A stretch of 45,164 nucleotides of DNA from an uncultured Halobacteriales archaeon (GTDB lineage Archaea > Thermoplasmatota > E2 > JACPAO01 > JAHWKR01). Location of the stretch: contig CAYVRY010000002.1 of the NCBI GenBank assembly GCA_964452895.1, positions 18,155 to 63,318 on the forward strand. The letters are read 5' to 3'. The position numbers and the translations under genes were made by a program. The notes beneath the pieces were generated by a model. It worked only from the letters and a program-made list of their open reading frames with translations. It did no database searches and was not told the origin of the DNA. Positions 1,617 through 17,537 of the stretch are shown one piece after another (positions within the stretch are counted from its first letter, which is position 1; every line of letters starts with the position of its first letter).

Positions 1617-1669
1617 GGCTCCCGCGCTCCATCTTTCCCCCCGAAACGACCCCATCAGAAAGTGATTCC

Positions 1670-2494
1670 ATGCCCGAATACGAGGATTCCGTGCTCCCGG
1701 AGGAAGAAGAAGGCGTCGACCGCCGCCGGTTCGTCAAAGGCGCCATGGGTGCTGCGACGCTCGGTGTGGCGGGGGCGGCGGGTTTCGGGATGTTCAAGCA
1801 GATCGCGGTCCCCGGCGACACGATCGTTTCCTTTATAGACTACTTCGGGGCCCGCGCCATGCCCGGCAGCCCCGCGCCGCGAGGATTGCCGCTGATTCCG
1901 GTGCGTGTCAACGATGAGGGGTTCGTGGAGGGCGTCCCGGAGAAAGAGAGGAACGGCGTCATGGTCAACTACTTGGACCGGCTGCGCTACTGCGGTTATC
2001 AGAGCGCGCCGAACCTGAAGGACCCTTCCAGCGGGGACAACGTGTTCCGTTATTTCCTCACGGAGGAGAAGATCCACCAGGCCGCCGACCCGGAAGGCAC
2101 CTGGTTCTTCCTGGACAAGATCGGCGATCGGGTGCGTGCCGATGACTTCGCGGACCTGGACTACAACACGGGCGCGGCGGTGCGTTGGCGCAGTGAGGAC
2201 GCGCGGCCCAGCGACATCGTGACCATGATGGTCCTCAAGCTGGACCCGGACCGGTTCGAAGGGCCCAATGCCGGGGAGTTGGAGCACTTCATGGACAACG
2301 ACCACAACCTGGTCGGGTTGTCCGCGATCTGCACCCATTTTTGTTGCGTGCCCGGCTACAAGGAGGCCAGGACGAAGGCGGAGTCGTTCGGTGCCTGGGA
2401 GATGGCGTTCTGCACGTGCCACAATTCCCGCTTCAACCCGTACGAGATCACCGGCTACAACTTCATGCTCCGGGAGAAGGTCGAGGAGGATTGA
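1670..2494 (+). CDS. Rieske [2Fe-2S] subunit of a Rieske/cytochrome b complex
   Basis: Tat signal DRRRFVKG plus hydrophobic helix; Rieske boxes CTHFCC and CTCHNSRF; directly upstream of cytochrome b. Confidence 0.93.
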   Translation: MPEYEDSVLPEEEEGVDRRRFVKGAMGAATLGVAGAAGFGMFKQIAVPGDTIVSFIDYFGARAMPGSPAPRGLPLIPVRVNDEGFVEGVPEKERNGVMVNYLDRLRYCGYQSAPNLKDPSSGDNVFRYFLTEEKIHQAADPEGTWFFLDKIGDRVRADDFADLDYNTGAAVRWRSEDARPSDIVTMMVLKLDPDRFEGPNAGELEHFMDNDHNLVGLSAICTHFCCVPGYKEARTKAESFGAWEMAFCTCHNSRFNPYEITGYNFMLREKVEED

Positions 2495-2555
2495 CCAGAT
2501 GATGGATGACGAGGCGGCGTGCACTCGACCCGGTGGATCGGAGGCGACGGTCTAG

Positions 2556-3380
2556 ATGGCGAGGGTGCAAGGGCGGCCCACCAAGGGCGCGGACACAACG
2601 ATCTCAGGCAAGGGGAAGGCGAGCCGGGGCCAGCGCGCCGCGCTGCGCACGTTCGCCTGGCTCGAAGACCGGTTCCTGCTGCGTCAGTTCCGCACCCAGA
2701 CGCGGGAGTTCATGTACCGCATCAACATGCAGATGCCGGTCTCCCACACGGAGCGCTACAACCTGCGTGTGATCTGGTATTGGTATCCGCTCTACACGCT
2801 GGGAAGCCTGGCGTTGCTCTCTTTCCTGATCGCCGCGATCAGCGGCACGCTCCTGGCGCTCTACTATGTCCCTTCCGCCGCGGCCACCTCGCTCCGGCCC
2901 TACGGCGACCTGCCCACGGAGGCGTGGGTCTCCGTGGCGGTGACGATCACGCAGGAGATCCCGTTCGGGTTCATGTTGCGCCAGATGCATTTCTGGTCCG
3001 CGATGGTCATGGTGGCCGCCGTGATCCTGCACACCTGCCGGATCTATTTCACGCAGAGCTACAAGAAGCCGCGTGAGGTGAACTACTTCATCGGCATCAC
3101 CTTGCTGGTGCTCACGCTCGGCCTGGGTTACACCGGATACCTGCTGCCTTGGAGCCAGCTCTCCTATTGGGCCGGCCAGATCGGCCTCCAGATGGCGCTG
3201 ATCACGCCCATGATCGGGCAGTGGGCGGCGGCTCTTGTCTTCGGCGGTGCCACGCTGGGCCAGGAGACCTTGACCCGCATGTACATCCTGCATGTGTTCA
3301 TCCTCCCCATCATCACGTTCCTGGTGATCGTCGTGCACATCATGCTCGTCTGGATCCAGGGCATCACGGAACCCCACTGA
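2556..3380 (+). CDS. petB: Cytochrome b6-like subunit (N-terminal half of split cytochrome b)
   Basis: Heme-ligand His pairs in QMHFWSAMVMVAAVILH and LHVFILPIITFLVIVVH; GYTGYLLPW; TLTRMYILH; ends QGITEPH as in b6. Confidence 0.95.
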   Translation: MARVQGRPTKGADTTISGKGKASRGQRAALRTFAWLEDRFLLRQFRTQTREFMYRINMQMPVSHTERYNLRVIWYWYPLYTLGSLALLSFLIAAISGTLLALYYVPSAAATSLRPYGDLPTEAWVSVAVTITQEIPFGFMLRQMHFWSAMVMVAAVILHTCRIYFTQSYKKPREVNYFIGITLLVLTLGLGYTGYLLPWSQLSYWAGQIGLQMALITPMIGQWAAALVFGGATLGQETLTRMYILHVFILPIITFLVIVVHIMLVWIQGITEPH

Positions 3381-3398
3381 ACCACGGAAACGGATACC

Positions 3399-4118
3399 AT
3401 GCCGACCACGAAAGATATGATCCGGTCCTACATGGACGAGGTGGACCGCCTCGAAGAGGAGGCCCGCTCGAAAAAGCGCTTCCGTGCCGTGGAAGGGTTC
3501 CCGTTCTGGCCCCACGAGTTCCTGCGTGACATGGCGCTCGTGTTGATCTTCGTCGCCGGTATGATCTACCTCTCCGCGTTCATCCCGTACTACTTGGAGG
3601 CGCCGGCGGACCCGGCCGGTCAACCGGAAGTGATCCTGCCGGATTGGTACCTGCTCTGGTCGTACGGGCTCTTGAAGATCGCCGTGTCGGTGAAGATCTT
3701 CGGGGTGGAGCTCATGACCGGGGACCTTGCGGGTGTGCTCCTGAACGGGGTCGTCGTGGGTTTCATGATCATCGTGCCGTTCATCTCCCGCGGTGTGGCG
3801 CGGCGGCCCACCCAGGCGGCCGCCATGGCGGGCTTCGGTGTCTTCGGGATGCTGTTGGGGATCACGTTGTCCGTGTATTCCGTGGATGTGCTCCTGATGG
3901 AGGAATGGCCGTGGTTGGCCACGGACCTCTGGGTCCAGCAGGGGCTCTCCGAGTTCCTGCATCTGCTGCAGACGAACATCCTGAGCATCCTCACGCTGGG
4001 GGTCCCGGTGTTGGGCGCCATCGTCACCTATTTCTTCTTGAAGTGGCGCGGTGCGATCAAGGACGGGACGCCGGGTTACGAGCACAAGCTCTCGGCGAGC
4101 TATTACAAGATCCGGTAA
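3399..4118 (+). CDS. petD: Cytochrome b6f subunit IV-like protein (C-terminal half of cytochrome b)
   Basis: PFWP motif, PADP...ILPDWY (Qo-site PEWY variant), several TM helices; follows petB. Confidence 0.92.
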   Translation: MPTTKDMIRSYMDEVDRLEEEARSKKRFRAVEGFPFWPHEFLRDMALVLIFVAGMIYLSAFIPYYLEAPADPAGQPEVILPDWYLLWSYGLLKIAVSVKIFGVELMTGDLAGVLLNGVVVGFMIIVPFISRGVARRPTQAAAMAGFGVFGMLLGITLSVYSVDVLLMEEWPWLATDLWVQQGLSEFLHLLQTNILSILTLGVPVLGAIVTYFFLKWRGAIKDGTPGYEHKLSASYYKIR

Positions 4119-4212
4119 GCGGCCGGCGCGGCGTGGGTGGCAAGTCTTATCGCCCGGCCGGGCTGCTGCCGGAGGTGTGCAGAGCACGCAGGACACCACG
4201 TCCAAGCGCGCC

Positions 4213-4689
4213 ATGGGCCGTAGCGACTGGCGGGAGGTCACCCTGGCGCGTTACCGCCGTTACACGACGGTCTCCAGCCTGCTCGGTGTCGCGCTGTTGG
4301 CGTGGGGCTTGTGGCGATTGGCGCATGCGCAGTTCATCACGGGGCTCCTGCTGATCGTCGCGGGCTTCGTGGCGGGGCTTTGGACCGTCTTGTTGCGCAT
4401 CGAGGGGACGCCGGCCCCGCTCTATGAACCCAAGCCGCAGGGTCGCGAGGAATGGGCGCCGCGGGTGCTGCACTTCTACACCCGCAGACAATGCACGCTC
4501 TGCGACGAGGCCAGGACGCGCTTGGAGCCGGTGATGCGGGCCAAGGGGATCACGATCGTGGCGCACGACGTGGACAAGGACCCCGTCCTTGAGAAGCGCT
4601 ACGGGGCGCGGGTCCCCGTGGCGGTCTACGAAGGGGACGAGGTGTTCGCCTTGCAGTACGACGACCAGGCGGTGCGGGTGCTGCGATGA
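4213..4689 (+). CDS. Membrane-anchored glutaredoxin-like (DUF836-like) protein
   Basis: Two N-terminal TM helices, then YTRRQCTLCDEA ... DVDKDP ... YGARVPV (thioredoxin fold, CxxC, cis-Pro). ATG at 4213 chosen as start. Confidence 0.8.
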   Translation: MGRSDWREVTLARYRRYTTVSSLLGVALLAWGLWRLAHAQFITGLLLIVAGFVAGLWTVLLRIEGTPAPLYEPKPQGREEWAPRVLHFYTRRQCTLCDEARTRLEPVMRAKGITIVAHDVDKDPVLEKRYGARVPVAVYEGDEVFALQYDDQAVRVLR

Positions 4690-4775: not shown

Positions 4776-5531
4776 ATGGCCCTTTTGTCCAAACCGGACG
4801 AGAACCGCCTCTGGCTCGTGATCGCCGCGCTGTTGGGCGTGAGCATGGTCCTGCTTTTTGCTTCATTCCAGGTCCCTTGGTACATGGCGACCTTGACCAC
4901 GGGGAATGTGGAGTTCCAGGGTGAGTTCGATTTCAACGAGGCGGACGTGGAGGTCTATTCGGGCGGTCAATTGCTGGATTCCCATACGTTGGCGTACGGG
5001 GACCCGAGCGCGTTCGGGGACCTCATGGACCGTGTGGGTGTGCTCATGGGGCTCGGCACGTTCGCCGTTCTGGGTCTGGCGGCGCTCTTGTTCTCGCATT
5101 ATCGCGGCTGGTTCTCCCATTCCAAGCTCATTGCGTTGGCCTGGATCCTTGGCGTGGGAGGGATCGCGGCGGGTCTCACGAGTTTCACGTTGGGCGCGGG
5201 GAGTGCAGGCGCGGACGAGATCTCCCGGTTGCTGGCCATCTACGCTCCGGGGGAGTCGGACCAGCTGGGTCGTCCCGACCCGCTGTTCTGGGGCACGCAG
5301 ACCTATGCCGGCGGGGAGCTCGTCTCGGCACCCGGAGTGGGTTGGTTGCTGGCGATCCTGGCGCTCTTGAACCTGGGCGCCGCGACGCTCTTGTTGTACC
5401 AGTTCCCGGCGGGCACGAGCGAGCCGGACGAGGGGGAGCTGGAGTCTTTCCGGCCCGTCGGGGAGGAGACCGGCGACCGGGAAGTGCGTGAGGCCCCCTT
5501 GGGGGCCCAGGAACCATGGAGTCGGGGCTGA
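4776..5531 (+). CDS. Hypothetical 4-TM membrane protein
   Basis: Four hydrophobic segments, PWY after TM1, GVGW before TM4, acidic tail; ttttat upstream. Confidence 0.7.
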   Translation: MALLSKPDENRLWLVIAALLGVSMVLLFASFQVPWYMATLTTGNVEFQGEFDFNEADVEVYSGGQLLDSHTLAYGDPSAFGDLMDRVGVLMGLGTFAVLGLAALLFSHYRGWFSHSKLIALAWILGVGGIAAGLTSFTLGAGSAGADEISRLLAIYAPGESDQLGRPDPLFWGTQTYAGGELVSAPGVGWLLAILALLNLGAATLLLYQFPAGTSEPDEGELESFRPVGEETGDREVREAPLGAQEPWSRG

Positions 5532-5616
5532 GTCTCTCATCCGTGGCAGCCCACAGGCCATGGATGGCAAACGGTTTATCCAATTGGCACCGTCGGCGTC
5601 GTCGTCGGAGGCACTC

Positions 5617-7095
5617 ATGGAGTCGTTCGAACTCGTGTTATGGGTCTTCTCTTCGCCGGAGCTTGCGGCCTCGTTGCAAGGGTTCGGTCGGCGCGTGGTG
5701 GCGGGGCTGGTGGTCGGCAGCATCTTCGCGCTCGCCGGCGTCGGTCTGACCTTGGTCTATGGGATCCTCCGGCTGGCGAATTTCGCCCACGGCGATTTCC
5801 TGACACTGGGGACGTACCTGGCGCTCTATTTTGTGGCGTTGATCACGTTGCCTGCGACCCTGAGGTGGGGCCTGGGCGCGGCGTTGCTGCTCATTCTCCT
5901 GGTGGCCGCGGACCGCTACCTTCGTCCCTGGTGGGTCCGAAGGCGGGGCTCGGGCGAAGGGGCCGTTTTGCACAAGCTCTCGGCCACGGAGTCCGCGCTG
6001 GTGCTCTATGCGGCTGCGGCATTGGTCGCCCTGGTGGCCGGGAACCGCTTCCCGGTCGGGGTCCCTTCCGCGTGGGTGGCGTTCATCGTCGCTCTGGCCG
6101 CGGCCGGCGTCCTGGTGTGGCGTCTTCTCTCCAGTGCGCGGGACCAGGCGGCAGGCGGCAGGCAGCTTCTGGCCTGGGTGGGGTTCGCCGTTGTCGCGGT
6201 GGCGGCGGCTCATTTCCTTGTCCCGCTGCAGACCGGGCCGGGCGGTTTCTCGTTTCCCGGCGAGATCGCCATCGGCCTGGTCGTGCTCGCGGTGGGCGCG
6301 CTCCGGTCGAAGCGGGATGCCGGCGAGGACCCGGCGGTGCTCGGGGTCCTGGGATTGACGGGTCTGGTCGCGCTCTACTTGTTGGCCACACCGATCCTGT
6401 TGGCGGTCACGTTGGCGTTGGCGATCGTCGCTGCGGTGAGTGTGGTCTTGGACCTTGTCATGTGGCGGCGCGCCCGCGCCATGGGGGCGGGTCTGGTCAC
6501 GCTGATCATCATGGCGATCGGGTTGGCGCTGGTGATCCGCAATTCGATCATCGTCTTGTGGGGGGGCGGTCTGAAAGGGTTCCCGGGCGTCCTGCGTCGC
6601 GGGGAGGAGATCCTCGGCACCGGCGTCTTGATCACTCCGAACCAGGCCATCGTGATCGGCGTGACGGTGCTCGTCGCGCTTCTGCTTCATTTCCTCCTTC
6701 AGCATACCCGGGTGGGTAAGGCCATGCGGGCGTTGTCGGACGACATGGAGCTGGCGCGGGTATCCGGGATCGACGTGGACCGGGTGGTCTTGTATGTCTG
6801 GATCGTCGGCGGGGTCCTCGTGGCTTTGGCGGGGATCTTGTACGGGATGACGCGGGCGTTCACGCCGAGCCTGGGCTGGCATCAGCTTCTGCCCATCTTC
6901 GCTGCGGTGATCCTGGGCGGGATCGGCAGCGCGTACGGGGCCATGGTGGGCGGTTTCGCGATCGGGCTGGCCATGGAGACGAGCGTCTTTTTCGGGGTGC
7001 CTTCGGAGTACCGCCTCGCCGTGGGCTTCGGGATCTTGATCCTGGTGATGATCTTCCGGCCCCGGGGGATCTTCGGGAGGTCGGCGGTCCGATGA
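5617..7095 (+). CDS. livH: Branched-chain amino acid ABC transporter permease, LivH-like, with a large internal TM insertion
   Basis: ALAGVGLTLVYGILRLANFAHG; TRVGKAMRALSDD..LARVSGID; FAAVILGGIGS. ATG 5617 has ggagg upstream. Confidence 0.9.
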   Translation: MESFELVLWVFSSPELAASLQGFGRRVVAGLVVGSIFALAGVGLTLVYGILRLANFAHGDFLTLGTYLALYFVALITLPATLRWGLGAALLLILLVAADRYLRPWWVRRRGSGEGAVLHKLSATESALVLYAAAALVALVAGNRFPVGVPSAWVAFIVALAAAGVLVWRLLSSARDQAAGGRQLLAWVGFAVVAVAAAHFLVPLQTGPGGFSFPGEIAIGLVVLAVGALRSKRDAGEDPAVLGVLGLTGLVALYLLATPILLAVTLALAIVAAVSVVLDLVMWRRARAMGAGLVTLIIMAIGLALVIRNSIIVLWGGGLKGFPGVLRRGEEILGTGVLITPNQAIVIGVTVLVALLLHFLLQHTRVGKAMRALSDDMELARVSGIDVDRVVLYVWIVGGVLVALAGILYGMTRAFTPSLGWHQLLPIFAAVILGGIGSAYGAMVGGFAIGLAMETSVFFGVPSEYRLAVGFGILILVMIFRPRGIFGRSAVR

Positions 7096-8564
7096 CGCAA
7101 GATGAGCCGCGGCAGGCGACCCTATGGCGACGCCACGGGCGATGGGCAGTGGGGATCGGTGTGCTGCTCTCGTTCCTGGCGTGGTTGACGTGGAGTGTCC
7201 ATCCGGATTTCTCGCTGCTCGTCTATGTGGGGGCGCTGGCCGGGATCCATCGGTGGGTGGTGACGAGCCGGCGGTTCACGCCCCGGGTGCGGGAGAACCT
7301 CGTCTTTTTGGTCCTGGGGGTCGGGCTGCTGGGCATGCTCTGGATGCTCACCGGGTTGAACAACCAGGCCATGGCGGGGATCATCCTCGTCATGGCGATC
7401 TACGCGCTGTTCGGTCTGGGTCTGAACCTTCAGTTCGGGTATACGGGGATCATCAATTTCGGGCATGTGGCCTTCCTGGGGATCGGTGCGTATGCGGTGG
7501 CGGTGATGACGTTCCGTTATCCGCATTGGGCCGGCGTGCTCCAAGACCCGGGGGGATGGAGCCTGCTCGCCGTGGTGCTTTCTGCCCTGCTTCTTTTCCT
7601 CCTCGTCGGTTTCTTCTTCAGCCTGGTCGTGGAGTGGGTGTTCACCATGATCGACATCCCGTTCGAGTGGCGGCGACGTTCGCAGATCATCGCCGGGACG
7701 GGCGGGGGGCTCCTGGCGGTGCTGGTCCTGTTGTGGGTGGTGCCGTACCCGCTTTCACCCATGTGGGCGATGACCTTCTTCCTCGCCGCGGCGGCCGTCG
7801 TGGGGATGATCGTCGCCGCCTTCGCCGGCCTGCTTCTGGGGCTGCCTACGCTCCGGCTGCGCGCGGATTACCTGGCCATCGTGACGATCGGTGCCGCGGA
7901 GATCCTGCGGCGCGCCTGGTTGAACGAGGCCTGGTTGACCAACGGCGCCCTGGGGCTTTCGGTGAGCCGCGGCCAGCGGCCGTTCGACGTGGCGTTCCGG
8001 GAGTGGCAGTGGCCGGGCCATCTGGCCGGGTGGTTGGACGTGGGTTCGGTGAGCACGCTTCTTTTGCTCCTGATGGTGGTCATCGTGGTGATGGTCGTGT
8101 TCGCAGGCTACGAGGTGCTTTCGCGTTCTCCGTACGGCCGGGTGCTGCGCGCGGTGCGCGAGGACGAGGACCTCGCGACGGCCCTGGGCAAGAACGTGTT
8201 CGCGTACAAGCTCCAGGTCTTGGCCATCGGGGGCGCCGTGGCGGCGCTGGCCGGGGCGTTTCTGTTGTGGCAGCAGCAGTTCATCGAGCCCAACGATTTC
8301 CACCCGCTGATCACGTTCTACGCCTGGATCATCGTGGTCGTGGGCGGGGCCGGGAACAACAAGGGCACGCTCCTGGGAGCGGTGGTCTTGTGGACCTTCT
8401 TCGAAGCGACCCGGTTCCTGAACATGGACGCCAACCTGGGCCTGAGCGGGACGCAGGCGGGCGCGTTGCGGGTCGCGCTGATCGGCCTCATGTTGATCCT
8501 TCTCATGTTGTTCAAACCGGAAGGGCTTCTGGGCAAGCGGGAGGAGTTGGTGCTTGGTGATTGA
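7092..8564 (+). CDS. livM: Branched-chain amino acid ABC transporter permease, LivM-like
   Basis: LGLNLQFGYTGIINFGH; LRLRADYLAIVTIG; SPYGRVLRAVREDE; KPEGLLG; ATGA overlap with livH. Confidence 0.92.
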   Translation: MTQDEPRQATLWRRHGRWAVGIGVLLSFLAWLTWSVHPDFSLLVYVGALAGIHRWVVTSRRFTPRVRENLVFLVLGVGLLGMLWMLTGLNNQAMAGIILVMAIYALFGLGLNLQFGYTGIINFGHVAFLGIGAYAVAVMTFRYPHWAGVLQDPGGWSLLAVVLSALLLFLLVGFFFSLVVEWVFTMIDIPFEWRRRSQIIAGTGGGLLAVLVLLWVVPYPLSPMWAMTFFLAAAAVVGMIVAAFAGLLLGLPTLRLRADYLAIVTIGAAEILRRAWLNEAWLTNGALGLSVSRGQRPFDVAFREWQWPGHLAGWLDVGSVSTLLLLLMVVIVVMVVFAGYEVLSRSPYGRVLRAVREDEDLATALGKNVFAYKLQVLAIGGAVAALAGAFLLWQQQFIEPNDFHPLITFYAWIIVVVGGAGNNKGTLLGAVVLWTFFEATRFLNMDANLGLSGTQAGALRVALIGLMLILLMLFKPEGLLGKREELVLGD

Positions 8565-9405
8565 TGACCAGGAAGGCCGGCAGGCCGTGGCCCAGGTGGA
8601 GAAGGCCCGCCAGCAGGGCCGAAGGGGAAAGCGACCCGCACCGATCCTGGAGGCGAAAGGGGTGCGCAAGCATTTCGGGGGGATCAAGGCGGTGGACGGC
8701 ATGGACCTCAGCGTGATGAAGGGGGAGATGGTGGGGCTGATCGGGCCGAACGGCGCGGGCAAGACCACGTTCTTCAACGTGCTCGCCGGCTGGTATCCGC
8801 CGGACGGGGGGACGGTCCGGTTCCAGGGCAAGCCGATCCACAGCCTTTGGTCGCACCGGGTGGCACGACGCGGCCTGGTGCGCACGTTCCAGATCACCCG
8901 GACGCTATCCCGCATGAGTGTGTTGGAGAACATGATGCTCGTGCCGCAGCATCAGCTCGGGGAACATGTCTGGGCCCCGTTTCTGCCGGTCTTGGGACGT
9001 CCCCGCCTGGCCACCCAGGAACAGGAAGTGGCAAAGAAGGCGCACCGGTTGCTGGAGTTTTTCCAGCTCGACCACTTGGCGCAGGAATACGCCGGGGCGC
9101 TTTCGGGGGGCCAGCGCAAGTTGTTGGAACTGGCGCGTGTGCTCATGTTGGACCCGCGGATGATCCTGTTGGACGAGCCCACGGCGGGGGTGAACCCGAC
9201 CTTGGCGCGGCGCATCATGACCCGGTTGCAGGAGATCCGCGAGAAGCAGGGCATCACGATCCTGTTGATCGAGCACGACATGGAGACGGTGATGGCGAAC
9301 TGCAAACGGATCGTGGTGATGGCGGCGGGGCGACAGCTTGCGCAGGGCACGCCGGAGGAGATCCAGTCGAACAAACAGGTCATAGACGCCTACCTGGGGG
9401 GATGA
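8554..9405 (+). CDS. livG: ABC transporter ATP-binding protein, LivG-like
   Basis: GPNGAGKTT, RTFQ, LSGGQ, LLDEP, IEHDM, AYLG. Confidence 0.93.
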   Translation: MVIDDQEGRQAVAQVEKARQQGRRGKRPAPILEAKGVRKHFGGIKAVDGMDLSVMKGEMVGLIGPNGAGKTTFFNVLAGWYPPDGGTVRFQGKPIHSLWSHRVARRGLVRTFQITRTLSRMSVLENMMLVPQHQLGEHVWAPFLPVLGRPRLATQEQEVAKKAHRLLEFFQLDHLAQEYAGALSGGQRKLLELARVLMLDPRMILLDEPTAGVNPTLARRIMTRLQEIREKQGITILLIEHDMETVMANCKRIVVMAAGRQLAQGTPEEIQSNKQVIDAYLGG

Positions 9406-10118
9406 TGGTGGGGGACGTGCTCGAGGTCAAGGATCTGGTGGTGGGGTATGTGGAGGAGCTGGACATCCTTCATGGGGTGTCCATGCGGGTAGCGGACGGC
9501 GAGACGGTCTGCATCATCGGCCCGAACGGGGCGGGAAAGAGCACATTGATCAAGAGCGTCTTCGGTCTCTTGCCCCCCAAACGTGGCCAGATCCGGTTCC
9601 GGCAGGAGGAGGTCGCGGGGCTGCCTCCCGAAGAGATCGTGCGGCGGGGCATGGGGTACGTCCCACAGATGGGCAACGTGTTCCCGCAGATGAGCGTGGA
9701 GGAGAACCTGGAGATGGGGGCGTGGACCCGGCGCTCGGGGTACCAGGATGCCCTGGAGCGTGTGGAGGCCATGTTCCCCGTGCTGAAGAAAAGACGGCGT
9801 CAACGCGTGGGGACCATGAGCGGTGGCGAACGGCAGATGGTGGCCATGGGCCGTGCGCTGATGGTGAGTCCGCAGCTTCTTCTTCTGGATGAGCCGTCCG
9901 CGGGTCTCGCTCCGAACCTGGTGGACGATGTCTTCGCGAACGTGGAAAGGATCGCCCAGCAGGGCATCCCGATCCTCCTGGTGGAGCAGAACGCGAAAAA
10001 GGGGCTCGCGGCGAGCGACCGGGGGTACGTGCTGGACATGGGGAAAAACCGGTTCGAGGGCACGGGCCGGGAGTTGTTGGAGAACCCGGACGTGGGCAAG
10101 CTCTACCTGGGTGGCTGA
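9402..10118 (+). CDS. livF: ABC transporter ATP-binding protein, LivF-like
   Basis: GPNGAGKST, MSGGERQMVAMGRAL, LLDEPS, LVEQN, LYLGG; ATGA overlap with livG. Confidence 0.93.
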   Translation: MMVGDVLEVKDLVVGYVEELDILHGVSMRVADGETVCIIGPNGAGKSTLIKSVFGLLPPKRGQIRFRQEEVAGLPPEEIVRRGMGYVPQMGNVFPQMSVEENLEMGAWTRRSGYQDALERVEAMFPVLKKRRRQRVGTMSGGERQMVAMGRALMVSPQLLLLDEPSAGLAPNLVDDVFANVERIAQQGIPILLVEQNAKKGLAASDRGYVLDMGKNRFEGTGRELLENPDVGKLYLGG

Positions 10119-10134
10119 AGCACGCCCGGACCAG

Positions 10135-10175
10135 GGACAAAAAGAGGGGCGGGGAGAAGAAGGGAAGAGGGTGCG
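10135..10175 (-). terminator. Pyrimidine-rich terminator of the substrate-binding protein gene
   Basis: Minus strand reads ctcttcccttcttctcccc...ctctttttgtc just past the stop, between convergent genes. Confidence 0.5.
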
Positions 10176-10181
10176 TTCGCG

Positions 10182-11447
10182 CTAGAAGAGGTCTTCCATG
10201 CGGATCCCCGATTCCCGCACGGTGATCTCTCCGTCGTCGATCTCCCAGATCGAGAAGAGGGCGAACTCGTCGTCCATGTCGCCCGCGTCGTCCCATTCCA
10301 TGGGGCCCGCGGCGCCGGTCCATACGATCTCTTGGCCGTCACGGATCAACTCGAGGGCCCGACCGGCATCGTAGACCACTTCTTCCCCGGGGGAGTTCTG
10401 CACGGAGCGAAGCGAGGATTTCAGCTCCTCGCCGCCGGTGCAGTTGCAGTGCTCGGCGGCGAGCATGAGCAGCATGGCCGCGTCGTAGGTGCGGTCCGAG
10501 AACAACTCGGGGCCCGAGCCGTATTCGGCTTCGAAGTCCGAAAGAAACTCCTCGGTCTCGACCTGTTGGGGTTCGGTCCCCCAGAAACCGTCCAGGATGT
10601 TCTCCCCGGCGTCATCGTGGAATTCGGTGACGAACTCCTGGTCCCGCATCCCCTCCGAGAAGTACCAGGGTGTGGGGTCGTCGCCTTCGAAGAGGCCTTG
10701 CGCCAGGGCGTTTTCAAGCACGACCTGCCCCGTGTCCGGGTAACCGATCAAAACGATCGCGTCGGCGTCGGCGTCCGCGGCCTGCTGGACGTCCGTCGTG
10801 AAGTCCGCGCCTTCGGGGTCGTAGGGGACTTCCTCCACGACGGTCCCCCCGTTCTCTTCGAATGCTTGCTCGAGCGCCTCGCCGAAGCCCTGGCCGTAGT
10901 CGTTGTTCAGCAGGATCACCGCGATCTCCTCGTGGCCGTGGTCCAGGACCAGGTCCGCCATGACGGGTCCCTGCAAGGCGTCGGATGGGACGGTGCGGAA
11001 GTACCAGTCGTCGTCGTCGAGGTCGGTGAACCGCGGCGCGGTGTTCGACGGGCTGATGATCGGGATCTGGGCATCGATCACTGATTCCACGAATGCGGAT
11101 GTGACGCCGGAACCCATGGCGCCGACGATGGCGTGCACGCGTTCGACGTCGATCAGGTTCTCGGCGGCGCTGCGCGCGGCCTCCCCACGGGTCTCCGAGT
11201 CCGCTTCCACGTGGACCACGTCTTGACCGTTGACGCCGCCGTTCTCGTTGACGTGCTTCACGGCGAGGTTCAAGGCGTTCTGCGCGGACGGGCCGAACGG
11301 GCTGAGGTCGCCGGTAAGCGGCAGGACGCTGCCGATCTTGAACTGGTCGTCATCCGTGTCGGATTCGTGGCAACCGGCCAGTGCGACGCTTGCAAGCGTC
11401 AAGGTGGCGAGGACGACAAGGATTTGCGTGCTTTTGGTGTGTGTCAT
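10182..11447 (-). CDS. livK: ABC transporter substrate-binding lipoprotein, LivK/LivJ family
   Basis: Lipobox LAGC; KIGSVLPLTG, NENGGVNG, ISPSNT, FRTVPSD, YDAA; strongly acidic. ATG 11447 has an SD-like ggagg upstream. Confidence 0.92.
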   Translation of the reverse strand: MTHTKSTQILVVLATLTLASVALAGCHESDTDDDQFKIGSVLPLTGDLSPFGPSAQNALNLAVKHVNENGGVNGQDVVHVEADSETRGEAARSAAENLIDVERVHAIVGAMGSGVTSAFVESVIDAQIPIISPSNTAPRFTDLDDDDWYFRTVPSDALQGPVMADLVLDHGHEEIAVILLNNDYGQGFGEALEQAFEENGGTVVEEVPYDPEGADFTTDVQQAADADADAIVLIGYPDTGQVVLENALAQGLFEGDDPTPWYFSEGMRDQEFVTEFHDDAGENILDGFWGTEPQQVETEEFLSDFEAEYGSGPELFSDRTYDAAMLLMLAAEHCNCTGGEELKSSLRSVQNSPGEEVVYDAGRALELIRDGQEIVWTGAAGPMEWDDAGDMDDEFALFSIWEIDDGEITVRESGIRMEDLF

Positions 11448-11633
11448 GAGGACCCTCCGTTTTGCCCTGCGGGCGGGAGCCCCGACTTTGCCAGTGGATA
11501 AAAGGGTTTCTCGCAGTGCCTGCACACGCTTCGCGACACAAGGCGGTTGTCGTTTTCACCGTCTCTCGTTTTCCGCTTGTTTCCCCGCGCCAGCTTTTTT
11601 AAGGGGACCCTCGTACCGGCGCCCGGCCCCCTA

Positions 11634-11641
11634 CTTAAAGT
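11634..11641 (+). promoter_or_regulatory. Putative archaeal TATA box
   Basis: cttaaagt about 25-30 bp upstream of ATG 11665, consistent with a leaderless transcript. Confidence 0.5.
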
Positions 11642-11664
11642 AACGGGGCGGCGGAGGCGCGCGG

Positions 11665-14433
11665 ATGTTCATGAATCGCGACGACAGGCGGGTGTTGAGG
11701 GCTCTTTTCGGTCACCGGGTGAGTTTCCACGAAGCGGAACGGCGGCTTTACGAGACGGATCTTTGGCGCCCGCCCGTCGGCGTGCGTCGGTTCGTACGAT
11801 CCATGCCGGAGGCGGTGGTGTTGCCGGAGAACGAGACGGAACTCGTGGAGCTGGTGGGTTTCGCCAATGAAGTGGGGATCCCGTTGGTCCCGCGCGGCGG
11901 CGGCACGGCCCTCAACGGCGGCTCCATGCCGGTTCGTGGCGGGATCGTGGTGGATTTCGCGCACATGGACCAGCGCTTCGAGCCCAGCGCGCAGGGCAGC
12001 GAGGTCCTGGTGGGGGCGGGGATGACGTTCGCGTCGCTCTCGGCGCGCCTGGCGGCGATCGGGCAGGCGCCCCTTGTGGAACCGGTCTTCCCGGAGACCA
12101 CCGTGGGCGGTTGGTTGGCCACGGGGGGCCCGGGGTTCGGGTCGAACCGGTTCGGTTTTTTCGAGGATACGGTGCGTTTTGCCCGCGTGGTCCTTCCGGA
12201 CGGCACTCGGCGTGTGTTCTCGGGCAGTGAGTTGGAGGTGGTCTCGTCCCTTTGTGGGTCTACGGGTCTGATCAGTTCCGTCACGTTGCGCACCCGGGCG
12301 CTTGAGCGACCGGTGCCGTTTTTGGCGTCCTTTGCGGACCTGGGGTCTTTGGACGGGGCGTTCGACGAGGTCCGTAACGCCACCCGGTGGTGGTCTTTGA
12401 GTGTGGAGCCTCCGGAGACCGCGGCAATGAAGGCGGAGGCATTGGGTCAAAAGGCTCCCGCCCGCAACGCGTTTTTGCTCATGGGTGCGGCTTTGCCGGG
12501 GGATTGGGACGAGGCCGGTCAGCAGGCGGTCACCAAGATCGTGGAGAAGGCCGGGGGGAAAGTGGTCGACGCGAAGAAGACGAAGACCTGGTGGGACGCG
12601 CACGATCGGGTGTACCAGGCGAAGTCGTTGGGGCCGAGCATGCACACGGGCTCCGTGCTTGTGCCGTCGAACGTCCTCCCCCAGGCCATCGCGCGCCTCC
12701 ACCGCGCCGTGAAGGCCCCGCACTGGTTGATGAGTGCGTTGGTCGCCGGCGACCAGACGCTGTTGACCGGTTACGCCCTGGATGACGAGCGGCGCCCGCC
12801 GCATGAGGTGGGTTACGGGGCCGTTCTTGCCATGGAGCATGCGCTGAAAAAGCTCGGCGGCCGCCCGGTCTCGTTGGGCGTGAAGGCGGCGGGTCAGGCG
12901 TCGCGGTTCATGAACGAGGACCGCTTGGACCGGGTGATCGAGTTCAAGAACGCCGTGGACCACAACGGGATCATGAATCCGGGCAAGGTCTTCGGGACGC
13001 CGATCGCGCGATTGAAGCCGTCTTGGGCGCCGGGTCCTTCCGTGCAGGCGGCACTGCGGCCCGGGGAGCCCTTGTTGCGGGCGATGCACGGTTCGACCTA
13101 TGTTCGTTATCAGCGCCGGGAGGAGGCACGCGCCCCGTACAAGGCGGGACTCTCGGCGGCGTTGGGGGCGGCCGGCGCGGGAGGGTTCGGGGCGAAGTGG
13201 GCGTGGCCCGTGATCGCTTCCGACGTGGACACGGGACTGCGTCATGCCAGTGCGAGTGCGCGCGCGTTCGGTTCCCTGGGTTCCAGCCCGCTGGGTTGGC
13301 TGGGTTGGGTAGGGCGCTACATCAGCGGGGACGCCACGTTCTCGGAGTACCAGTACCGGGCCCTGGCGGGGGAAGGGATCGCCGCGGAGGCGGAGGTAAG
13401 GAGCCGGTTCGGTCTCGCGTTCGCGGACCTCTTGATGGAACTGAAGGCACAGATGCTCGAGGAGGGTTTCCGTCCTCTCAAGGAGCACCGCGCGATCAGG
13501 GATGCCTGCTTGGAGCACCACAACGAGTACGGCCGGGACAACGTGGATCGAACGGCGTGGGCCGATGGGCTGGAACTCGCCGACAAGAGCGAGACCCTGG
13601 TCTTTGTGGACGACACGGTGAGTTTCGAGGCGCCCCGTTTTGCGAACCTGTGCGTGCGTCTTCTTCAAGGGGCCGGGCAGAACGTGACGTACTTGGGGGA
13701 GAAAGAGCACGCATCGGGTCAGGTGCTCTTGGCTTCCGGCCAAATGGAGGCCGCCGAGACGCTGTTCGAGCACAACGCGAAGGCGGTCAAGGAGTCCGGT
13801 GCGAAGGTCGTGATCACGCTCGACCCGTGGACCCATCATGTGCTCTCGCGCCTCTATCCGCGGATGGCGTCCCGTCTGGGAGTGCAGTGGGACGTGGAGG
13901 TGCGTCATGTCTACGAGGTCTTGGCGAAGCACGCGGACGCCGGCAAGATCTCGGCGCCGAAGGAGCAGGCGGGGATGGTCCTGCATCATCCACCGGTCTT
14001 CCTGCTCCACGGCATCGACGAGGCGATGGCGGCCACCGCGCTGGGTCTCATGGGGATCAAGGCGACGCCGCTGGTCCATCATGGCGAACAAGCCATGGAC
14101 GTGGGCGCAAGCGGTGCGGTGCGCCTGGTCTATCCGGAGATCGCCACCCTGGCCAGCCGGCGGGTCTTGCGTGACGCCGCCAGCTCGGACGCGGGTCACC
14201 TGGTTTCATCGGACCCGGCCAGCGGGTTGATCCTGGCCGCCAGCCGTGACCGGTTGGACGAGAACCAGACCGAGGGGGTCCCGGCGGTTTTCCTTCTGGG
14301 GGCCGACGTGCCTGCGCAGGCCGCAAAAGAGGCAGGCGCGAACAACGAGGATGAAGGCGAAGGGGACGAGACCGAAAGCGGGTCTTCGAAGGACGAGGAT
14401 GAGGCGGAGCAGGCCGCCCAGCAGGCGGCTTGA
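11665..14433 (+). CDS. FAD-binding (GlcD/D-lactate dehydrogenase-like) + ferredoxin + 2xCCG fusion homologue with degenerate Fe-S motifs
   Basis: PEAVVLP, PRGGGT..GG, TVGGWLATGG.G and DHNGIMNPGK define the FAD_binding_4/FAD-oxidase_C module. The C-terminal half follows the GlcF/HdrD layout but lacks the cysteines. Confidence 0.85.
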   Translation: MFMNRDDRRVLRALFGHRVSFHEAERRLYETDLWRPPVGVRRFVRSMPEAVVLPENETELVELVGFANEVGIPLVPRGGGTALNGGSMPVRGGIVVDFAHMDQRFEPSAQGSEVLVGAGMTFASLSARLAAIGQAPLVEPVFPETTVGGWLATGGPGFGSNRFGFFEDTVRFARVVLPDGTRRVFSGSELEVVSSLCGSTGLISSVTLRTRALERPVPFLASFADLGSLDGAFDEVRNATRWWSLSVEPPETAAMKAEALGQKAPARNAFLLMGAALPGDWDEAGQQAVTKIVEKAGGKVVDAKKTKTWWDAHDRVYQAKSLGPSMHTGSVLVPSNVLPQAIARLHRAVKAPHWLMSALVAGDQTLLTGYALDDERRPPHEVGYGAVLAMEHALKKLGGRPVSLGVKAAGQASRFMNEDRLDRVIEFKNAVDHNGIMNPGKVFGTPIARLKPSWAPGPSVQAALRPGEPLLRAMHGSTYVRYQRREEARAPYKAGLSAALGAAGAGGFGAKWAWPVIASDVDTGLRHASASARAFGSLGSSPLGWLGWVGRYISGDATFSEYQYRALAGEGIAAEAEVRSRFGLAFADLLMELKAQMLEEGFRPLKEHRAIRDACLEHHNEYGRDNVDRTAWADGLELADKSETLVFVDDTVSFEAPRFANLCVRLLQGAGQNVTYLGEKEHASGQVLLASGQMEAAETLFEHNAKAVKESGAKVVITLDPWTHHVLSRLYPRMASRLGVQWDVEVRHVYEVLAKHADAGKISAPKEQAGMVLHHPPVFLLHGIDEAMAATALGLMGIKATPLVHHGEQAMDVGASGAVRLVYPEIATLASRRVLRDAASSDAGHLVSSDPASGLILAASRDRLDENQTEGVPAVFLLGADVPAQAAKEAGANNEDEGEGDETESGSSKDEDEAEQAAQQAA

Positions 14434-14452: not shown

Positions 14453-16078
14453 TCAATCCTCGTCTCGCCCGGGCGTGCCGTCCCAGTGCAGCGATTTCCA
14501 TTGTGGGCCCAGTGTCCAGGAACCATGCACGTGCTGGCTGTGGGGGTCGAGCCCGCGTGATAGGTTGTGGTAGTATTGCGCTTCCACGTTGAGTTCGTAA
14601 TCCGCCAGGGCTCCGGTCATCAGCCGGACCTCGATCTGGATCTCGTCTTCCACCCAGTAGGAGAGGGGGCCGCGCCATACGGGGACGCCGGCCGTCTGCA
14701 GGTCGTGCGGCCCGTTTTTCGTGTCCACGGTCTGGAAGTGCCCGCTGGACACACGCAACCGGGTGCTCTGGACTCCGGCCAGGTCCCCGCCGAGGGGGTC
14801 TTGACTGGTGAGCTGCACACGATAACCTCCCAGGTGCAAGGCGCCGTCGTCCAGTTCGTACGGGAAGGAGAAGGCATGGTCTCTTGAATCATGGTCGGAG
14901 TCCGCCGGGAGGTCGCTGGTGCCCAGGAGCAGTTGTCCCTCGGCGCCCTCGGTGCGGGTCTTGACCGCCTGTTCCGCGTTGTAGGGCACGAAGAGGCTCA
15001 CGTGGTCGCGGGCGATGTTGCCGTTGTCGTCACGGACCGTGAGGGTCACGTCGAACATGCCGCCTTTCGTGTAGTTCTTGATCACCTTGGCTCCTGTCAT
15101 GGTGGTGCCGTCGCCGAAGTCCCAGCGGTGCTCCACGATGGGCACGCGGAGCGCGGTGCCTTGTTCGCGGTCCGGTCGGATGTAGTTGGAGGCCGACCGG
15201 GAGGCGTCGAAGCGCAGGTCCTGGGTGAGGCCCACGGCTTGGCTCACGCGTTTGTTCGGCTGGGTCCGGTCGAAGTAGAGCCGGGCGTCCGTCTCGGGGT
15301 CCATGATCTCGAGCGTGGTGGACGGGGGGGTGCCGCGCCCTTCCTTTTTCAGGGAGCCGTCGCCGGACCCGTTGTCGGGCATTTGCGAGGCGCCGCCGTC
15401 CATGGGGTGGTAGTCGACTTTCTTGTTGTCGACGTGCACGGCGATCCCTGCGGGAACGGTGGAATGCGCGAAGGCACCGCCGTCGTTGCGGTAAAACGAG
15501 CGTTGCAGGTCGATCTCGATGAACAGGTCGGTGGTCCGCCCGCCGAAGACGACGTGCACGGCACGCAGCGTGATGACGTTGCCGCTGTGTTCGAGAGGGG
15601 TCTCCTGGATCTCGGTGACCGCCCGCCCGTTCTTGCTGCCCACGACCCGTTCCACGCCCACGCTGGCTTGATCGATCTGGAAGGCGAACCCGGAGTATTC
15701 GCCATCGGGGACGACGGTGCGCGCCACTTGCACGGTCTTGCGTTGCTGCTCCAGCTCGACCAGGTCCACTTGGGTGTTCACCGCCCTCATGGTCTCGAGG
15801 TCCTCGAGCAGGATGTCGCGCGCATGCCAGACGTGGCCGAACGTGAGGTTGTAATGGACGAACTCATTGCTGATCGCACCGGGTCGTGCGGCGACCCAGA
15901 TGCGCAACTCCCCGTCCTCCGGCGTCTCGACCACTTCTTCCCGTTGCGGGAAGACCACGTCCAGGCAGCCGGAGAGAAGGCTGCTGCTGACCAGCAGCAG
16001 GACCAGGCCTGCCGCGCTCATGCGGCGTCGCCTGGTGCGGTTTGGGCGGTTGCGCTTCGTCGCCGTTGGTTGGTCCAT
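14453..16078 (-). CDS. Surface lipoprotein with DUF4382-like and PKD domains
   Basis: Basic N-terminus, hydrophobic stretch and lipobox LSGC; PDGEYSG..F and IEIDLQRSF (DUF4382-like); FDASRS...WDFGDG...GMFDVTLTVRDDNG (PKD). Start may be 16022. Confidence 0.8.
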   Translation of the reverse strand: MDQPTATKRNRPNRTRRRRMSAAGLVLLLVSSSLLSGCLDVVFPQREEVVETPEDGELRIWVAARPGAISNEFVHYNLTFGHVWHARDILLEDLETMRAVNTQVDLVELEQQRKTVQVARTVVPDGEYSGFAFQIDQASVGVERVVGSKNGRAVTEIQETPLEHSGNVITLRAVHVVFGGRTTDLFIEIDLQRSFYRNDGGAFAHSTVPAGIAVHVDNKKVDYHPMDGGASQMPDNGSGDGSLKKEGRGTPPSTTLEIMDPETDARLYFDRTQPNKRVSQAVGLTQDLRFDASRSASNYIRPDREQGTALRVPIVEHRWDFGDGTTMTGAKVIKNYTKGGMFDVTLTVRDDNGNIARDHVSLFVPYNAEQAVKTRTEGAEGQLLLGTSDLPADSDHDSRDHAFSFPYELDDGALHLGGYRVQLTSQDPLGGDLAGVQSTRLRVSSGHFQTVDTKNGPHDLQTAGVPVWRGPLSYWVEDEIQIEVRLMTGALADYELNVEAQYYHNLSRGLDPHSQHVHGSWTLGPQWKSLHWDGTPGRDED

Positions 16079-16315
16079 CGCCGCGACCCGACCGGAAAGA
16101 CGTTTCCGGGTACATAACGGGTCATCACGCGCGATGGGTTCGCCGGCCCCGTTTTGTGCGCCAAGCCCCGCCTTGGCGCCATAGCCTGGGTTTGTACGCG
16201 CGTCTTTCGTTTTGCGGTCCAGTCGCCATGGGGTCGAAAAGCGACGGTTTTCAGGGGCCTGTGTCCGGGGTGCCCGCGCACCAGCCTTTTATGGTCCCGG
16301 GGTGAGCGGTGTGGC

Positions 16316-16513
16316 ATGGCGGAAGCCTTCGTCGTCGTCGTGCTCGTGTTGGCGGCGCTCGTGTTGCTCGCGAACGTGCTTTTGTGGGTCCCGTTCGTCG
16401 GCAAGGTGTTCTGGGCGATCGGGAAGGTCCTGGGGTGGGTCGGATTCATCGTGGGTCTGTTGTGCCTCTGGGCGGTGGGGGTCCTGCTGGGATGGCTGCC
16501 GGCGCCGTTTTGA
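16316..16513 (+). CDS. Small hydrophobic membrane protein (65 aa)
   Basis: MAEAFVVVVLV... is almost entirely hydrophobic; cttttat about 25-30 bp upstream. Confidence 0.6.
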   Translation: MAEAFVVVVLVLAALVLLANVLLWVPFVGKVFWAIGKVLGWVGFIVGLLCLWAVGVLLGWLPAPF

Positions 16514-16583
16514 CAGGGTCGCTGCAGCGGCTGCCTGCTGGGCAAACCTTAACCGAAAAAGCGCGTGGGACGCCTCGTCGCTC

Positions 16584-17537
16584 ATGTCCCGGAAACCGGA
16601 TGCTCCTCCTGCACCGCAGGGTGCGGGGGCCGCCAATCAGGAAGACGATGCGAAGCAGGACGCCGGGCCGTCGCGCCCCATGGACCCGCGGATCCAGCAG
16701 CGCCAGCAACTCGTCGCGAAGCGATTGAAGGACATCGACCGCGTGCTCGTCGTGATGAGCGGCAAGGGCGGGGTCGGGAAGTCCAGCGTGGCGGCGTCCT
16801 TGGCCGTCAAGCTCGCGAAGGAGGGCAAACGCGTGGGTCTGTTGGACATGGACCTCACCGGGCCCGACCTGCCCCGCTTCATGGGCGTCGAAAAAGCGGA
16901 GATCAAGAACAGCGGCGACGGGATGGCGCCCGTGCAGGTGGACAAGAACCTCGTGATGATGAGCATCCAGTTCCTGCTCCCGGACCCCCATGCGGCGGTG
17001 GTCTGGCGGGGCCCCATGAAGATGGGCGCCATTCGTCAGCTCATCATGGACGTGGACTGGGGCAAGCTGGACCGTCTGGTGATCGACCTGCCGCCTGGGA
17101 CCAGCGACGAGCCGCTCTCCGTGGCGCAATCGATCCCGGACGCGGACGGCGTGGTGATCGTGACGACGCCGCATACGGTCTCCATTCTTGATGTGAGAAA
17201 GAGCATCGGCTTCGCCCGGCAGGTGGGGATGCACGTGTTGGGGGTCGTGGAGAACATGAGCGGCTTGGACTGCCCGCACTGCGGGAAAGGCATCTCGCTT
17301 TATGGGGCCGGCATGGGCGAGGACATGGCCAACGAGTTGGACATTCCGTTCTTGGGCCGGATCCCCATGGATCCGGAGGCCGCAGGGAGCGGCGACCAGT
17401 CCACGCCGGCCATGCTACGAAAGGGCCCGACGGCTGATGCGTTCGACAAGGTGGTCGTCCAGGTGGAGAAGGTGCTCGCGCTGCGCCCGCCGCGAAAGCG
17501 CCCGGAGCCCGGTGAAGGCCCGCTGAAGATGGCGTAA
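16584..17537 (+). CDS. mrp: Mrp/ApbC/Nbp35 family Fe-S cluster carrier ATPase
   Basis: SGKGGVGKS, WRGPM, WGKLDRLVIDLPPGTSD, VENMS..CPHC. Confidence 0.95.
   Translation: MSRKPDAPPAPQGAGAANQEDDAKQDAGPSRPMDPRIQQRQQLVAKRLKDIDRVLVVMSGKGGVGKSSVAASLAVKLAKEGKRVGLLDMDLTGPDLPRFMGVEKAEIKNSGDGMAPVQVDKNLVMMSIQFLLPDPHAAVVWRGPMKMGAIRQLIMDVDWGKLDRLVIDLPPGTSDEPLSVAQSIPDADGVVIVTTPHTVSILDVRKSIGFARQVGMHVLGVVENMSGLDCPHCGKGISLYGAGMGEDMANELDIPFLGRIPMDPEAAGSGDQSTPAMLRKGPTADAFDKVVVQVEKVLALRPPRKRPEPGEGPLKMA

Follow-up and report, generated by a model that had tools for sequence, protein, structure and literature searches.

The window analyzed here, a stretch of 45,164 nucleotides (nt) on contig CAYVRY010000002.1 (positions 18,155 to 63,318, forward strand; assembly GCA_964452895.1) from an uncultured Halobacteriales archaeon (Thermoplasmatota in the GTDB lineage), carries a gene for a 922-amino-acid (aa) protein, here called P0001, with an N-terminal flavin adenine dinucleotide (FAD) half and a C-terminal half related to iron-sulfur (Fe-S) proteins. 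P0001 is best read as the cluster-free descendant of a fused oxidoreductase consisting of a FAD half, two [4Fe-4S] clusters, and two CCG domains. The C-terminal module retains none of the 19 cysteines that serve as cluster ligands in its relatives, and the loss is not decay, as the module is under purifying selection. We favor the reading, with a probability of about 0.6, that P0001 is an active flavoenzyme that has abandoned its internal Fe-S relay, kept the scaffold, and lets electrons leave the flavin by some other way.

The original prediction, made by eye from the sequence, described an uninterrupted 922-aa open reading frame (ORF) with only three Cys and no ligand motif; translation and two alignments (A1 and A3) agree, placing the three Cys at residues 197, 615, and 663. 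In alignment A3 (77 rows), a ligand column was defined as one in which at least 60% of the 67 sequences outside the cysteine-free clade described below have Cys. Nineteen columns resulted, all of which are Cys in 54 of these 67 sequences and none of which is Cys in P0001. Both CxxCxxCxxxC motifs of the ferredoxin-like part have lost all eight Cys, with the columns reading S519, D522, L525, and S529 in motif 1 and E570, A573, A576, and S580 in motif 2, and P0001 has no Pfam Fer4 match. The five-Cys motif CXnCCGXnCXXC, which ligates a noncubane [4Fe-4S] cluster, is likewise absent from the two CCG relics, where 0 of 11 Cys columns are retained (D650, A683, S684, D720, and T723 in domain 1; P777, D812, V813, D850, A852, and S853 in domain 2). 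All the motif replacements proposed by eye are seen against Cys-intact homologs in A1 and A3; the two ferredoxin-like motifs were located at nt 13222 (D520) and nt 13372 (E570), and the others correspond to FVDD at residues 647-650, EHASG at 681-685, TLDPWT at 718-723, HHPPV at 774-778, DVGASG at 812-817, and SSDPAS at 848-853. Among the ligand changes are five from Cys to Asp (522, 650, 720, 812, and 850) and one from Cys to Glu (570). With 0.33% Cys overall, compared to a mean of ~0.84%, P0001 sits at the 22nd percentile of 1054 rough ORFs of this genome; what is anomalous is the set of positions at which Cys was lost, rather than a low Cys count.

The C-terminal module of P0001 is homologous to the module of EtfD and HdrD (two [4Fe-4S] plus two CCG), the relationship on which the prediction had staked itself and which profile, tblastn, and fold matches uphold. 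Cys-intact proteins of ~900-1050 aa align to 92-97% of P0001 at 26-31% identity (E 1e-80 to 3e-91). Within the genome itself, tblastn with residues 446-922 matched a canonical CCG protein at 9.6e-10, and the C-terminal half of a Cys-intact relative matched the C-terminal region of P0001 at 1.4e-21, while, of 401 phylum genomes sampled, 199 contained CCG-type genes that residues 446-878 matched at E 1e-8 or better. Pfam CCG (PF02754) scored 15.7 bits in P0001 over residues 656-721, below the cut-off of 20.6, but two of its cysteine-free orthologs exceed that cut-off (P0007 with 38.1 bits and P0009 with 31.8 bits). NCBIfam models matched below threshold: GlcD on residues 51-441, and TfrB, LdhH, and GlpC on roughly residues 590-870 (TfrB over residues 592-868, E 1.1e-6, 27.6 bits vs. 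a cut-off of 385; LdhH 17.1 vs. 800 and GlpC 14.3 vs. 278, both far from their equivalog cut-offs). Language-model features of residues 446-880 grouped with CCG/Fer4_17 clusters at 0.91.

While phmmer with the C-terminal half alone gave no meaningful match in the PDB, a family profile of C-terminal halves (alignment A4) matched EtfD (9ojn) with an E of 4e-55 and HdrB chains with E between 2e-16 and 5e-5. An AlphaFold model of the C-terminal part, with a predicted local distance difference test score (pLDDT) of 71.4 overall and 80-97 in the CCG part, matched EtfD with a Foldseek E of 8.8e-13 and a Z of 29.3 (root-mean-square deviation (rmsd) 3.1 Å over 373 residues), LutA with a Z of 22.6, and HdrB with a Z of 20.5-21.2, compared to a Z of at most 7.6 for unrelated folds. 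A full-length model reached a mean pLDDT of 91.5 and a predicted template modeling (TM) score of 0.90, with values above 93 from ~510 to 880, 52-86 in the linker, and below 50 in tail residues 886-922, the only disordered part. A 498-aa "hypothetical protein" of Helicobacter pylori (PDB 3kwl) also matched the C-terminal model (residues 71-461) with a Z of 20.1 over 327 residues, covering the whole module about as well as HdrB does.

P0001 is not alone in its loss. A word-based search returned seven proteins of 909-942 aa with 44-61% identity to P0001 (P0002-P0008) and one of 1051 aa with 41% identity (P0009), and one further 50%-identity cluster (P0121, 42%) came from an exhaustive search against 1.84 billion representatives, everything else being at or below 35%. 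The resulting clade comprises ten intact ORFs of 909-1051 aa with 40-62% identity and the same replacements, so that close orthologs do not keep the cysteines, as an incipient pseudogene would have led one to expect. Non-Cys residues occupy 187 of the 190 ligand cells of the ten members, which contain 1-3 Cys each at positions that are not conserved (excluding those in the ferredoxin domain of P0009). D522, E570, A573, A576, S580, D650, S684, D720, D812, and S853 are shared by all ten, and D850 and P777 by nine. Among the 401 phylum genomes, the cysteine-free module was found strongly only in this genome and G037 (E 5.7e-100; next 2.6e-27), and genome and metagenome scans with generic GlcD peptide patterns returned L036 as the sole ortholog locus of the clade.

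The module has been conserved within the clade about as well as the FAD half, with mean pairwise identities of 0.52 in the ferredoxin-like relic, 0.53 in CCG1, and 0.42 in CCG2, compared to 0.57 and 0.48 in the two FAD domains. Between the clade and the other A3 rows, the identity of the module falls to 0.16-0.29, a profile that suggests a phase of rapid change after which constraint returned. Strain-level variation points the same way. Near-identical DNA occurs in seven soil-metagenome runs from two studies, one of which may be the source; no RNA run is among the sequencing runs listed with such DNA. In four soil-metagenome runs (likeness of at least 85%), we noted 331 variant sites and analyzed the 40 best supported, of which 28 are synonymous and 12 non-synonymous, giving a ratio of non-synonymous to synonymous polymorphism (pN/pS) of ~0.14. 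In this sample, residues 446-870 carry 12 synonymous and 2 conservative changes (D634E and E643D; pN/pS ~0.06), the FAD half 16 synonymous and 8 non-synonymous (0.17), and the tail 0 and 2, respectively. The strain indels listed are compensating pairs or a 3-nt insert in the tail, with no frame-breaker among them. The concerted, non-random loss with retention of the scaffold, as first proposed, is therefore borne out by the ten-member clade, the conservation of the module, and the mostly synonymous strain variants.

The relatives of the clade appear to record how this state was reached. In a quick IQ-TREE phylogeny of the FAD half (49 rows: 10 from the clade, 7 partial-loss, 17 intact, 11 of the 28 order loci, and 4 short GlcD-like; support from the Shimodaira–Hasegawa-like approximate likelihood ratio test only, with four outgroup rows that do not fall on one side), the cysteine-free clade was monophyletic (support 100) and sister to homologs from the order's other two families (93). 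The next branch is an archaeal partial-loss clade (95), whose record names are Methanobacteriota, Thermoplasmatota, and Halobacteriales archaeon, and all three groups are nested in a branch of ~900-aa Cys-intact forms (100). An insert in the linker between the two halves is common to families f2 and f3, the partial-loss clade, and P0001, and is not seen in the Cys-intact forms. Family f2 is without the CCG part and has no more than one CxxCxxC...C set left, and family f3 has lost both the internal Cys and the CCG part (Pfam found Fer4 but no CCG in four of the four f3 proteins searched). In 23 of the 25 f3 loci of the order, the other two being cut by contig ends, a C-terminal ferredoxin domain is present with the motifs CxxCxxCxxxCP and CxxDxxCxxxCP, the latter having an Asp in place of the second Cys, which we take to be the pattern of 7Fe or Asp-ligated ferredoxins. 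This domain forms the C-terminal ~75 residues at the f3 loci (L011-L035) and, as CIVCNGCxxACP plus CIADGxCFDACP, is almost invariant over the 23.

Within the partial-loss clade, 16 of the 19 Cys are retained in P0126 and P0137, 9 in P0122 (L228, G105), 6 in P0150 and the G143 protein (L231), and none in P0127 (L229, G094). The tail is of the Fer4_13 type in P0122 and of the Fer2 type in P0150, the G143 protein, and P0127. The Fer2 tails of P0127 and the G143 protein are of the plant-type 2Fe-2S kind, and the Fer4_13 tail of P0122 is a single-cluster ferredoxin. Because P0127 lies in another clade and its replacement residues are unlike those of the P0001 clade, complete Cys loss arose at least twice. 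The sister lineages of the order and phylum lost their clusters stepwise, and ferredoxin domains of varied types became attached where the internal clusters decayed. In the cysteine-free clade itself, P0009 has an acidic linker followed by a two-cluster Fer4 domain, whereas P0001 and the eight other members carry no ferredoxin domain and terminate in a poorly conserved tail that is acidic and disordered; in P0001, this tail occupies the place of the linker to the appended domain in relatives.

The FAD half retains the FAD-binding motifs, as had been noted by eye. FAD_binding_4 and FAD-oxidase_C both score above their Pfam gathering cut-offs, as in VAO/PCMH-type proteins, and the glycine-rich motifs of the former are invariant across the 77 sequences of A3, from which FAD binding by P0001 is predicted. 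Given that the residues (near-)invariant in those sequences are kept (among them G149, G157, G159, W310, K320, D374, R376, D432, and N438), P0001 is probably still a dehydrogenase. The FAD half shares its fold with mouse LDHD (8jdv; TM score 0.84, rmsd 3.2 Å), human D2HGDH, and LctD of Ldh-EtfAB (7qh2_C, E 1.8e-19), which, unlike P0001, have no C-terminal module and possess a His/His/Glu metal site for 2-hydroxyacids that is not present in the P0001 subfamily. GlcD itself is a poor fit, as TIGR00387 scored 63.3 bits vs. a cut-off of 567.9, and the Glu and His were not conserved in comparison to 8jdb. The prediction had counted the loss of the C-terminal "EHG" motif of GlcD with the other changes. 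While the Glu and His are indeed absent, Cys-intact relatives likewise lack them and read "STG", so this loss is unrelated to that of the clusters and is a trait of the whole subfamily.

The surrounding genome (2.45 Mb in 262 contigs, 70% complete) provides context for the route of the electrons. We found neither a second FAD_binding_4 gene in this assembly nor a Cys-intact paralog of P0001 in the genome or in the relatives searched. Counting this genome, 36 of the order's 38 species genomes have a homolog of P0001, with a single match (E 1e-20 or better) in 34 of the 35 matching relatives and two in G030; one match was found in G037, which is 90% complete. A membrane EtfD-like protein on contig C37, with all its Cys and no FAD domain, is the sole canonical CCG protein of the genome. 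This protein (G000:C37, L001) possesses two CxxCxxCxxxC motifs and a pair of complete CCG motifs in addition to transmembrane helices. There are also three alpha-beta pairs of electron-transfer flavoprotein (ETF) on contigs C19 and C15 (L201-L206), which together with the EtfD-like protein suggest that ETF feeds electrons into the quinone pool on a large scale, and a free 7Fe-type ferredoxin (G000:C4:3084-3368). With ferredoxins and a gene for an Mrp/NBP35 carrier two genes downstream of P0001, the organism plainly makes Fe-S proteins.

For P0001 as an active flavoenzyme with an abandoned relay, we propose the following mechanism. In the absence of Cys, the four clusters could not be held in any known way and the relay from FAD to clusters would be gone, so the flavin would have to pass its electrons to something else. 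In relatives, the acceptor would be the ferredoxin domain tethered at the C-terminus, while in P0001, having only the acidic tether, it would most likely be diffusible. Candidates include the free 7Fe-type ferredoxin, one of the three ETFs, quinone, or O2. LDHD, D2HGDH, and LctD, the cluster-free enzymes nearest in structure, pass electrons to ETF, and the three ETF pairs with the EtfD-like quinone reductase could offer such a path here. The relic module would have a structural or docking role in the enzyme, its former cluster cavities presumably filled by the new conserved Asp, Glu, Ser, Ala, and Pro with Trp, Arg, and Phe nearby. Electron hopping via the new conserved Trp was considered and rejected on chemical grounds, as by our own reasoning a ground-state flavin cannot oxidize Trp. 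The "new electron route" raised in the original prediction is thus the possibility we favor, given the ferredoxin domains appended to relatives with degraded clusters, although such a route is seen in those relatives only.

Several known systems share parts of this architecture. Mycobacterial EtfD (9ojn) and HdrD/HdrBC have the same module fold and order, with a two-cluster ferredoxin-like part followed by two CCG domains. According to the portion of PMC13083937 available to us, EtfD holds two [4Fe-4S], a linear [3Fe-4S], and a noncubane [4Fe-4S] cluster, all via Cys. P0001 differs from EtfD in having 0 of 19 ligand Cys, no membrane domain, and an N-terminal FAD domain instead. The overall FAD, Fe-S, and CCG architecture is that of GlcD-GlcF/HdrD-type fusions and of Escherichia coli YdiJ, which is described as a D-2-hydroxyglutarate dehydrogenase in the accessible part of PMC9504171; in contrast to YdiJ, P0001 scored only 41.5 bits on NF049975 (cut-off 1350), over its N-terminal 143 residues. 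It is also that of ~900-1030-aa proteins without a family name, annotated as "FAD-binding and (Fe-S)-binding domain-containing proteins", in whose ~900-aa branch the clade nests and which, unlike P0001, keep 18-19 of the 19 Cys. No curated family cut-off was reached by P0001 or five relatives examined, and even the Cys-intact family is therefore uncharacterized.

Precedents for the loss of ligands, on the parts of the literature available to us, are partial only, comprising the altered cluster types of EtfD and the single CCG motif of DsrK, HmcF, and TmcB. The latter three are HdrD homologs that have only a single CCG motif each, and many DsrK carry a conserved Asp where the last Cys would be (both from the accessible part of PMC10861901), a Cys-to-Asp change in a CCG motif comparable to those of P0001. 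Unlike P0001, however, these proteins, as described there, still hold a noncubane cluster as well as the two [4Fe-4S] clusters and a catalytic Cys of the lost motif. A literature search, with supplementary alignments outside its scope, turned up no account of a CCG/HdrD module entirely devoid of Cys, and the P0001 family is not mentioned in the available portion of a genomics paper on anaerobic methanotrophic archaea (PMC9012536).

The replacements themselves suggest another reading, in which the former cluster sites were rebuilt as carboxylate- and His-lined sites for a non-Fe-S metal or small ligand, with the module acting in catalysis, regulation, or sensing. If true, this would mean a second catalytic or regulatory site on a flavoenzyme and an iron-sulfur domain re-purposed wholesale. 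Five ligand Cys have become (near-)invariant Asp and one Glu, next to a new invariant D649 and conserved H748, H774, and H805; Asp recurs at columns 650 and 720 in members of the other clade (P0150, P0151, P0137, and the G143 protein), a Cys-to-Asp change is tolerated in the CCG motif of DsrK (as reported in the accessible part of PMC10861901), and the module is under strong purifying selection. The cluster-free alpha/beta pair also has a cleft weakly like that of small-ligand binders such as Asp/Glu racemases (Z of at most 7.6), but these matches are at noise level. The clustering of the residues, moreover, is judged by homology to HdrB and EtfD only, Asp may be just the best-tolerated polar filler, and the f3 relatives have deleted the whole CCG part. 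We consider such rebuilding unlikely, if worth serious thought, and hold it rather doubtful that D522, E570, D649, D650, D720, D812, D850, H748, H774, and H805 in particular make up new metal or ligand sites. Distinctly improbable, in our view, is that all of P0001 has become a non-catalytic pseudoenzyme, scaffold, or flavin-based sensor. With the relay gone, no evident acceptor, the Glu and His of "EHG" missing, and no family model at its curated cut-off, the protein would resemble one; against this, Cys-intact relatives are equally without the "EHG" residues, P0001 keeps all (near-)invariant FAD-half residues of the 77 sequences, the FAD half is under purifying selection in the strain variants, and the ferredoxin domains appended in relatives make sense only with a redox-active flavin.

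GlcD-type enzymes often act as multi-subunit complexes, e.g., GlcDEF, and P0001 could in principle be the inactive half of a heteromer with a Cys-intact paralog, as the original prediction suggested. The gene content makes this very unlikely, since P0001 is the only FAD_binding_4 gene found in the 70% complete genome, there is no second homolog in 34 of the 35 matching order relatives, and the sole canonical CCG protein is the EtfD-like one without a FAD domain. An incipient pseudogene, or relaxed selection on the C-terminal half, seems scarcely credible. The drop in module identity between the clade and Cys-intact forms would suit it, as would the highest value of Nei–Gojobori dN/dS (the ratio of non-synonymous to synonymous substitution rates) vs. 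P0009 (locus L036; 42% identity), 0.67 in the CCG part compared to 0.49 in the FAD part and 0.38 in the linker plus ferredoxin-like part, although these values are saturated (dS 1.1-1.5). Ten intact ORFs with the same replacements, a module as conserved as the FAD domain in the clade, and module strain variants that are mostly synonymous with no frame-breaking indels among those listed all speak against decay.

Several points also weigh against our preferred reading of P0001 as an active flavoenzyme with a new electron route. Flavin binding and catalysis are predicted from conservation, and nine of the ten clade members, P0001 included, have no ferredoxin domain, so that the new route is seen only in relatives. 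The relic would be dispensable for the core reaction, as f3 proteins are without CCG relics altogether. No conserved neighbor gene pointing to a redox partner was found on comparing the window, L036, and the f3 loci. The pN/pS values are drawn from the 40 of 331 sites ranked best supported, and the saturated dN/dS values are uninformative and were given no weight. In the alignments behind the structural models, most rows (67 of 77 and 11 of 13) are from Cys-intact relatives, biasing the models towards the ancestral fold. Finally, aerobiosis is the background to the Cys loss and an insufficient cause of it. A heme-copper oxidase fragment is present in this genome, and the oxidase is found in 36 of the 38 order genomes and in five of five further phylum genomes, one of which has a homolog keeping 16 of the 19 Cys. 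Oxygen alone was thus rejected as the cause, because aerobic respiration also occurs in relatives with 16 of the 19 Cys.

The features of the gene and its surroundings are collected in Table 1.

Table 1. Positions in the window of the P0001 gene, its parts, and neighboring genes; residue numbers refer to P0001.
Feature	Position	Strand	Remarks
TATA-like CTTAAAGTAA	11634..11643	+	centered ~26 nt before ATG
Coding sequence of P0001, 922 aa	11665..14433	+	stop codon included; uninterrupted frame
FAD_binding_4, residues 48-183	11806..12213	+	Pfam 101.3 bits, cut-off 26.4, E 4.6e-29
FAD-oxidase_C (cap/substrate), residues 263-442	12451..12990	+	Pfam 22.5 bits, cut-off 21.2 (marginal)
Linker, residues 446-505	13000..13179	+	carries insert; best-conserved stretch of the clade, mean identity 0.58
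Two-[4Fe-4S] ferredoxin-like relic, residues 506-640	13180..13584	+	alignment
CCG domain 1 relic, residues 641-760	13585..13944	+	alignment, Pfam CCG, fold matches
CCG domain 2 relic, residues 761-870	13945..14274	+	alignment, fold matches
Acidic tail, residues 871-922	14275..14430	+	poorly conserved (mean identity 0.25), probably disordered
Cytochrome b, N-terminal b/b6 part	2556-3377	+	syntenic with L036
Cytochrome b, C-terminal petD-like part	3381-4115	+	syntenic with L036
Periplasmic binding protein	10182-11525	-	Liv-type ABC cluster; divergent orientation
PKD/DUF4382 surface-type protein	14453-16078	-	convergent to the P0001 gene, 20 nt between stops
Mrp/NBP35 Fe-S carrier ATPase	16212-17537	+	after the PKD/DUF4382 gene

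The start site of P0001 is the same as in its orthologs (A1). The TATA box proposed upstream is present as the TATA-like CTTAAAGTAA, a possible archaeal promoter for a leaderless mRNA. An antisense 854-aa ORF (11635-14199, - strand) was rejected as a gene, as the strain variants follow the + frame, with 28 of the 40 listed falling on its third codon positions; it is a shadow ORF of high-GC DNA (~65% G+C in the window).

The window and L036 are syntenic upstream of the gene in the cytochrome b genes, whose parts share 70-78% identity, and downstream in the genes for the PKD/DUF4382 protein (33%) and Mrp/NBP35 (66%). The upstream block (1311-4686, + strand), which is conserved in L036, encodes DUF7318, the split cytochrome b, and a glutaredoxin-like protein, and looks like a complex-III-like respiratory module. 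Between the syntenic blocks lies a Liv-type branched-chain amino-acid ATP-binding cassette (ABC) transporter cluster (5488-11525) of two permeases, an ATPase, and the periplasmic binding protein; this is absent at the corresponding place in L036, and may have been either inserted in the window or lost in L036. At the f3 loci, the neighbors are DnaJ and an LPG_synthase_TM protein.

What defines CCG/HdrD-type modules is their Cys-ligated clusters, including the unusual noncubane ones, and P0001 contains a natural, selectively maintained module of this type with 0 of 19 ligands. The lineage preserves intermediates with 16, 9, and 6-7 Cys, together with what appear to be alternative solutions, in the form of appended 7Fe-type, two-cluster 4Fe-4S, 2Fe-2S, and single-cluster ferredoxins or the deletion of the CCG part. 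It thus offers an unusually complete natural series on how aerobic archaea re-wire a multi-cluster redox enzyme. The same series addresses the structural replacement of clusters, and hence which parts of the fold have roles beyond holding iron, and it flags a whole uncharacterized family of FAD/Fe-S oxidoreductases.

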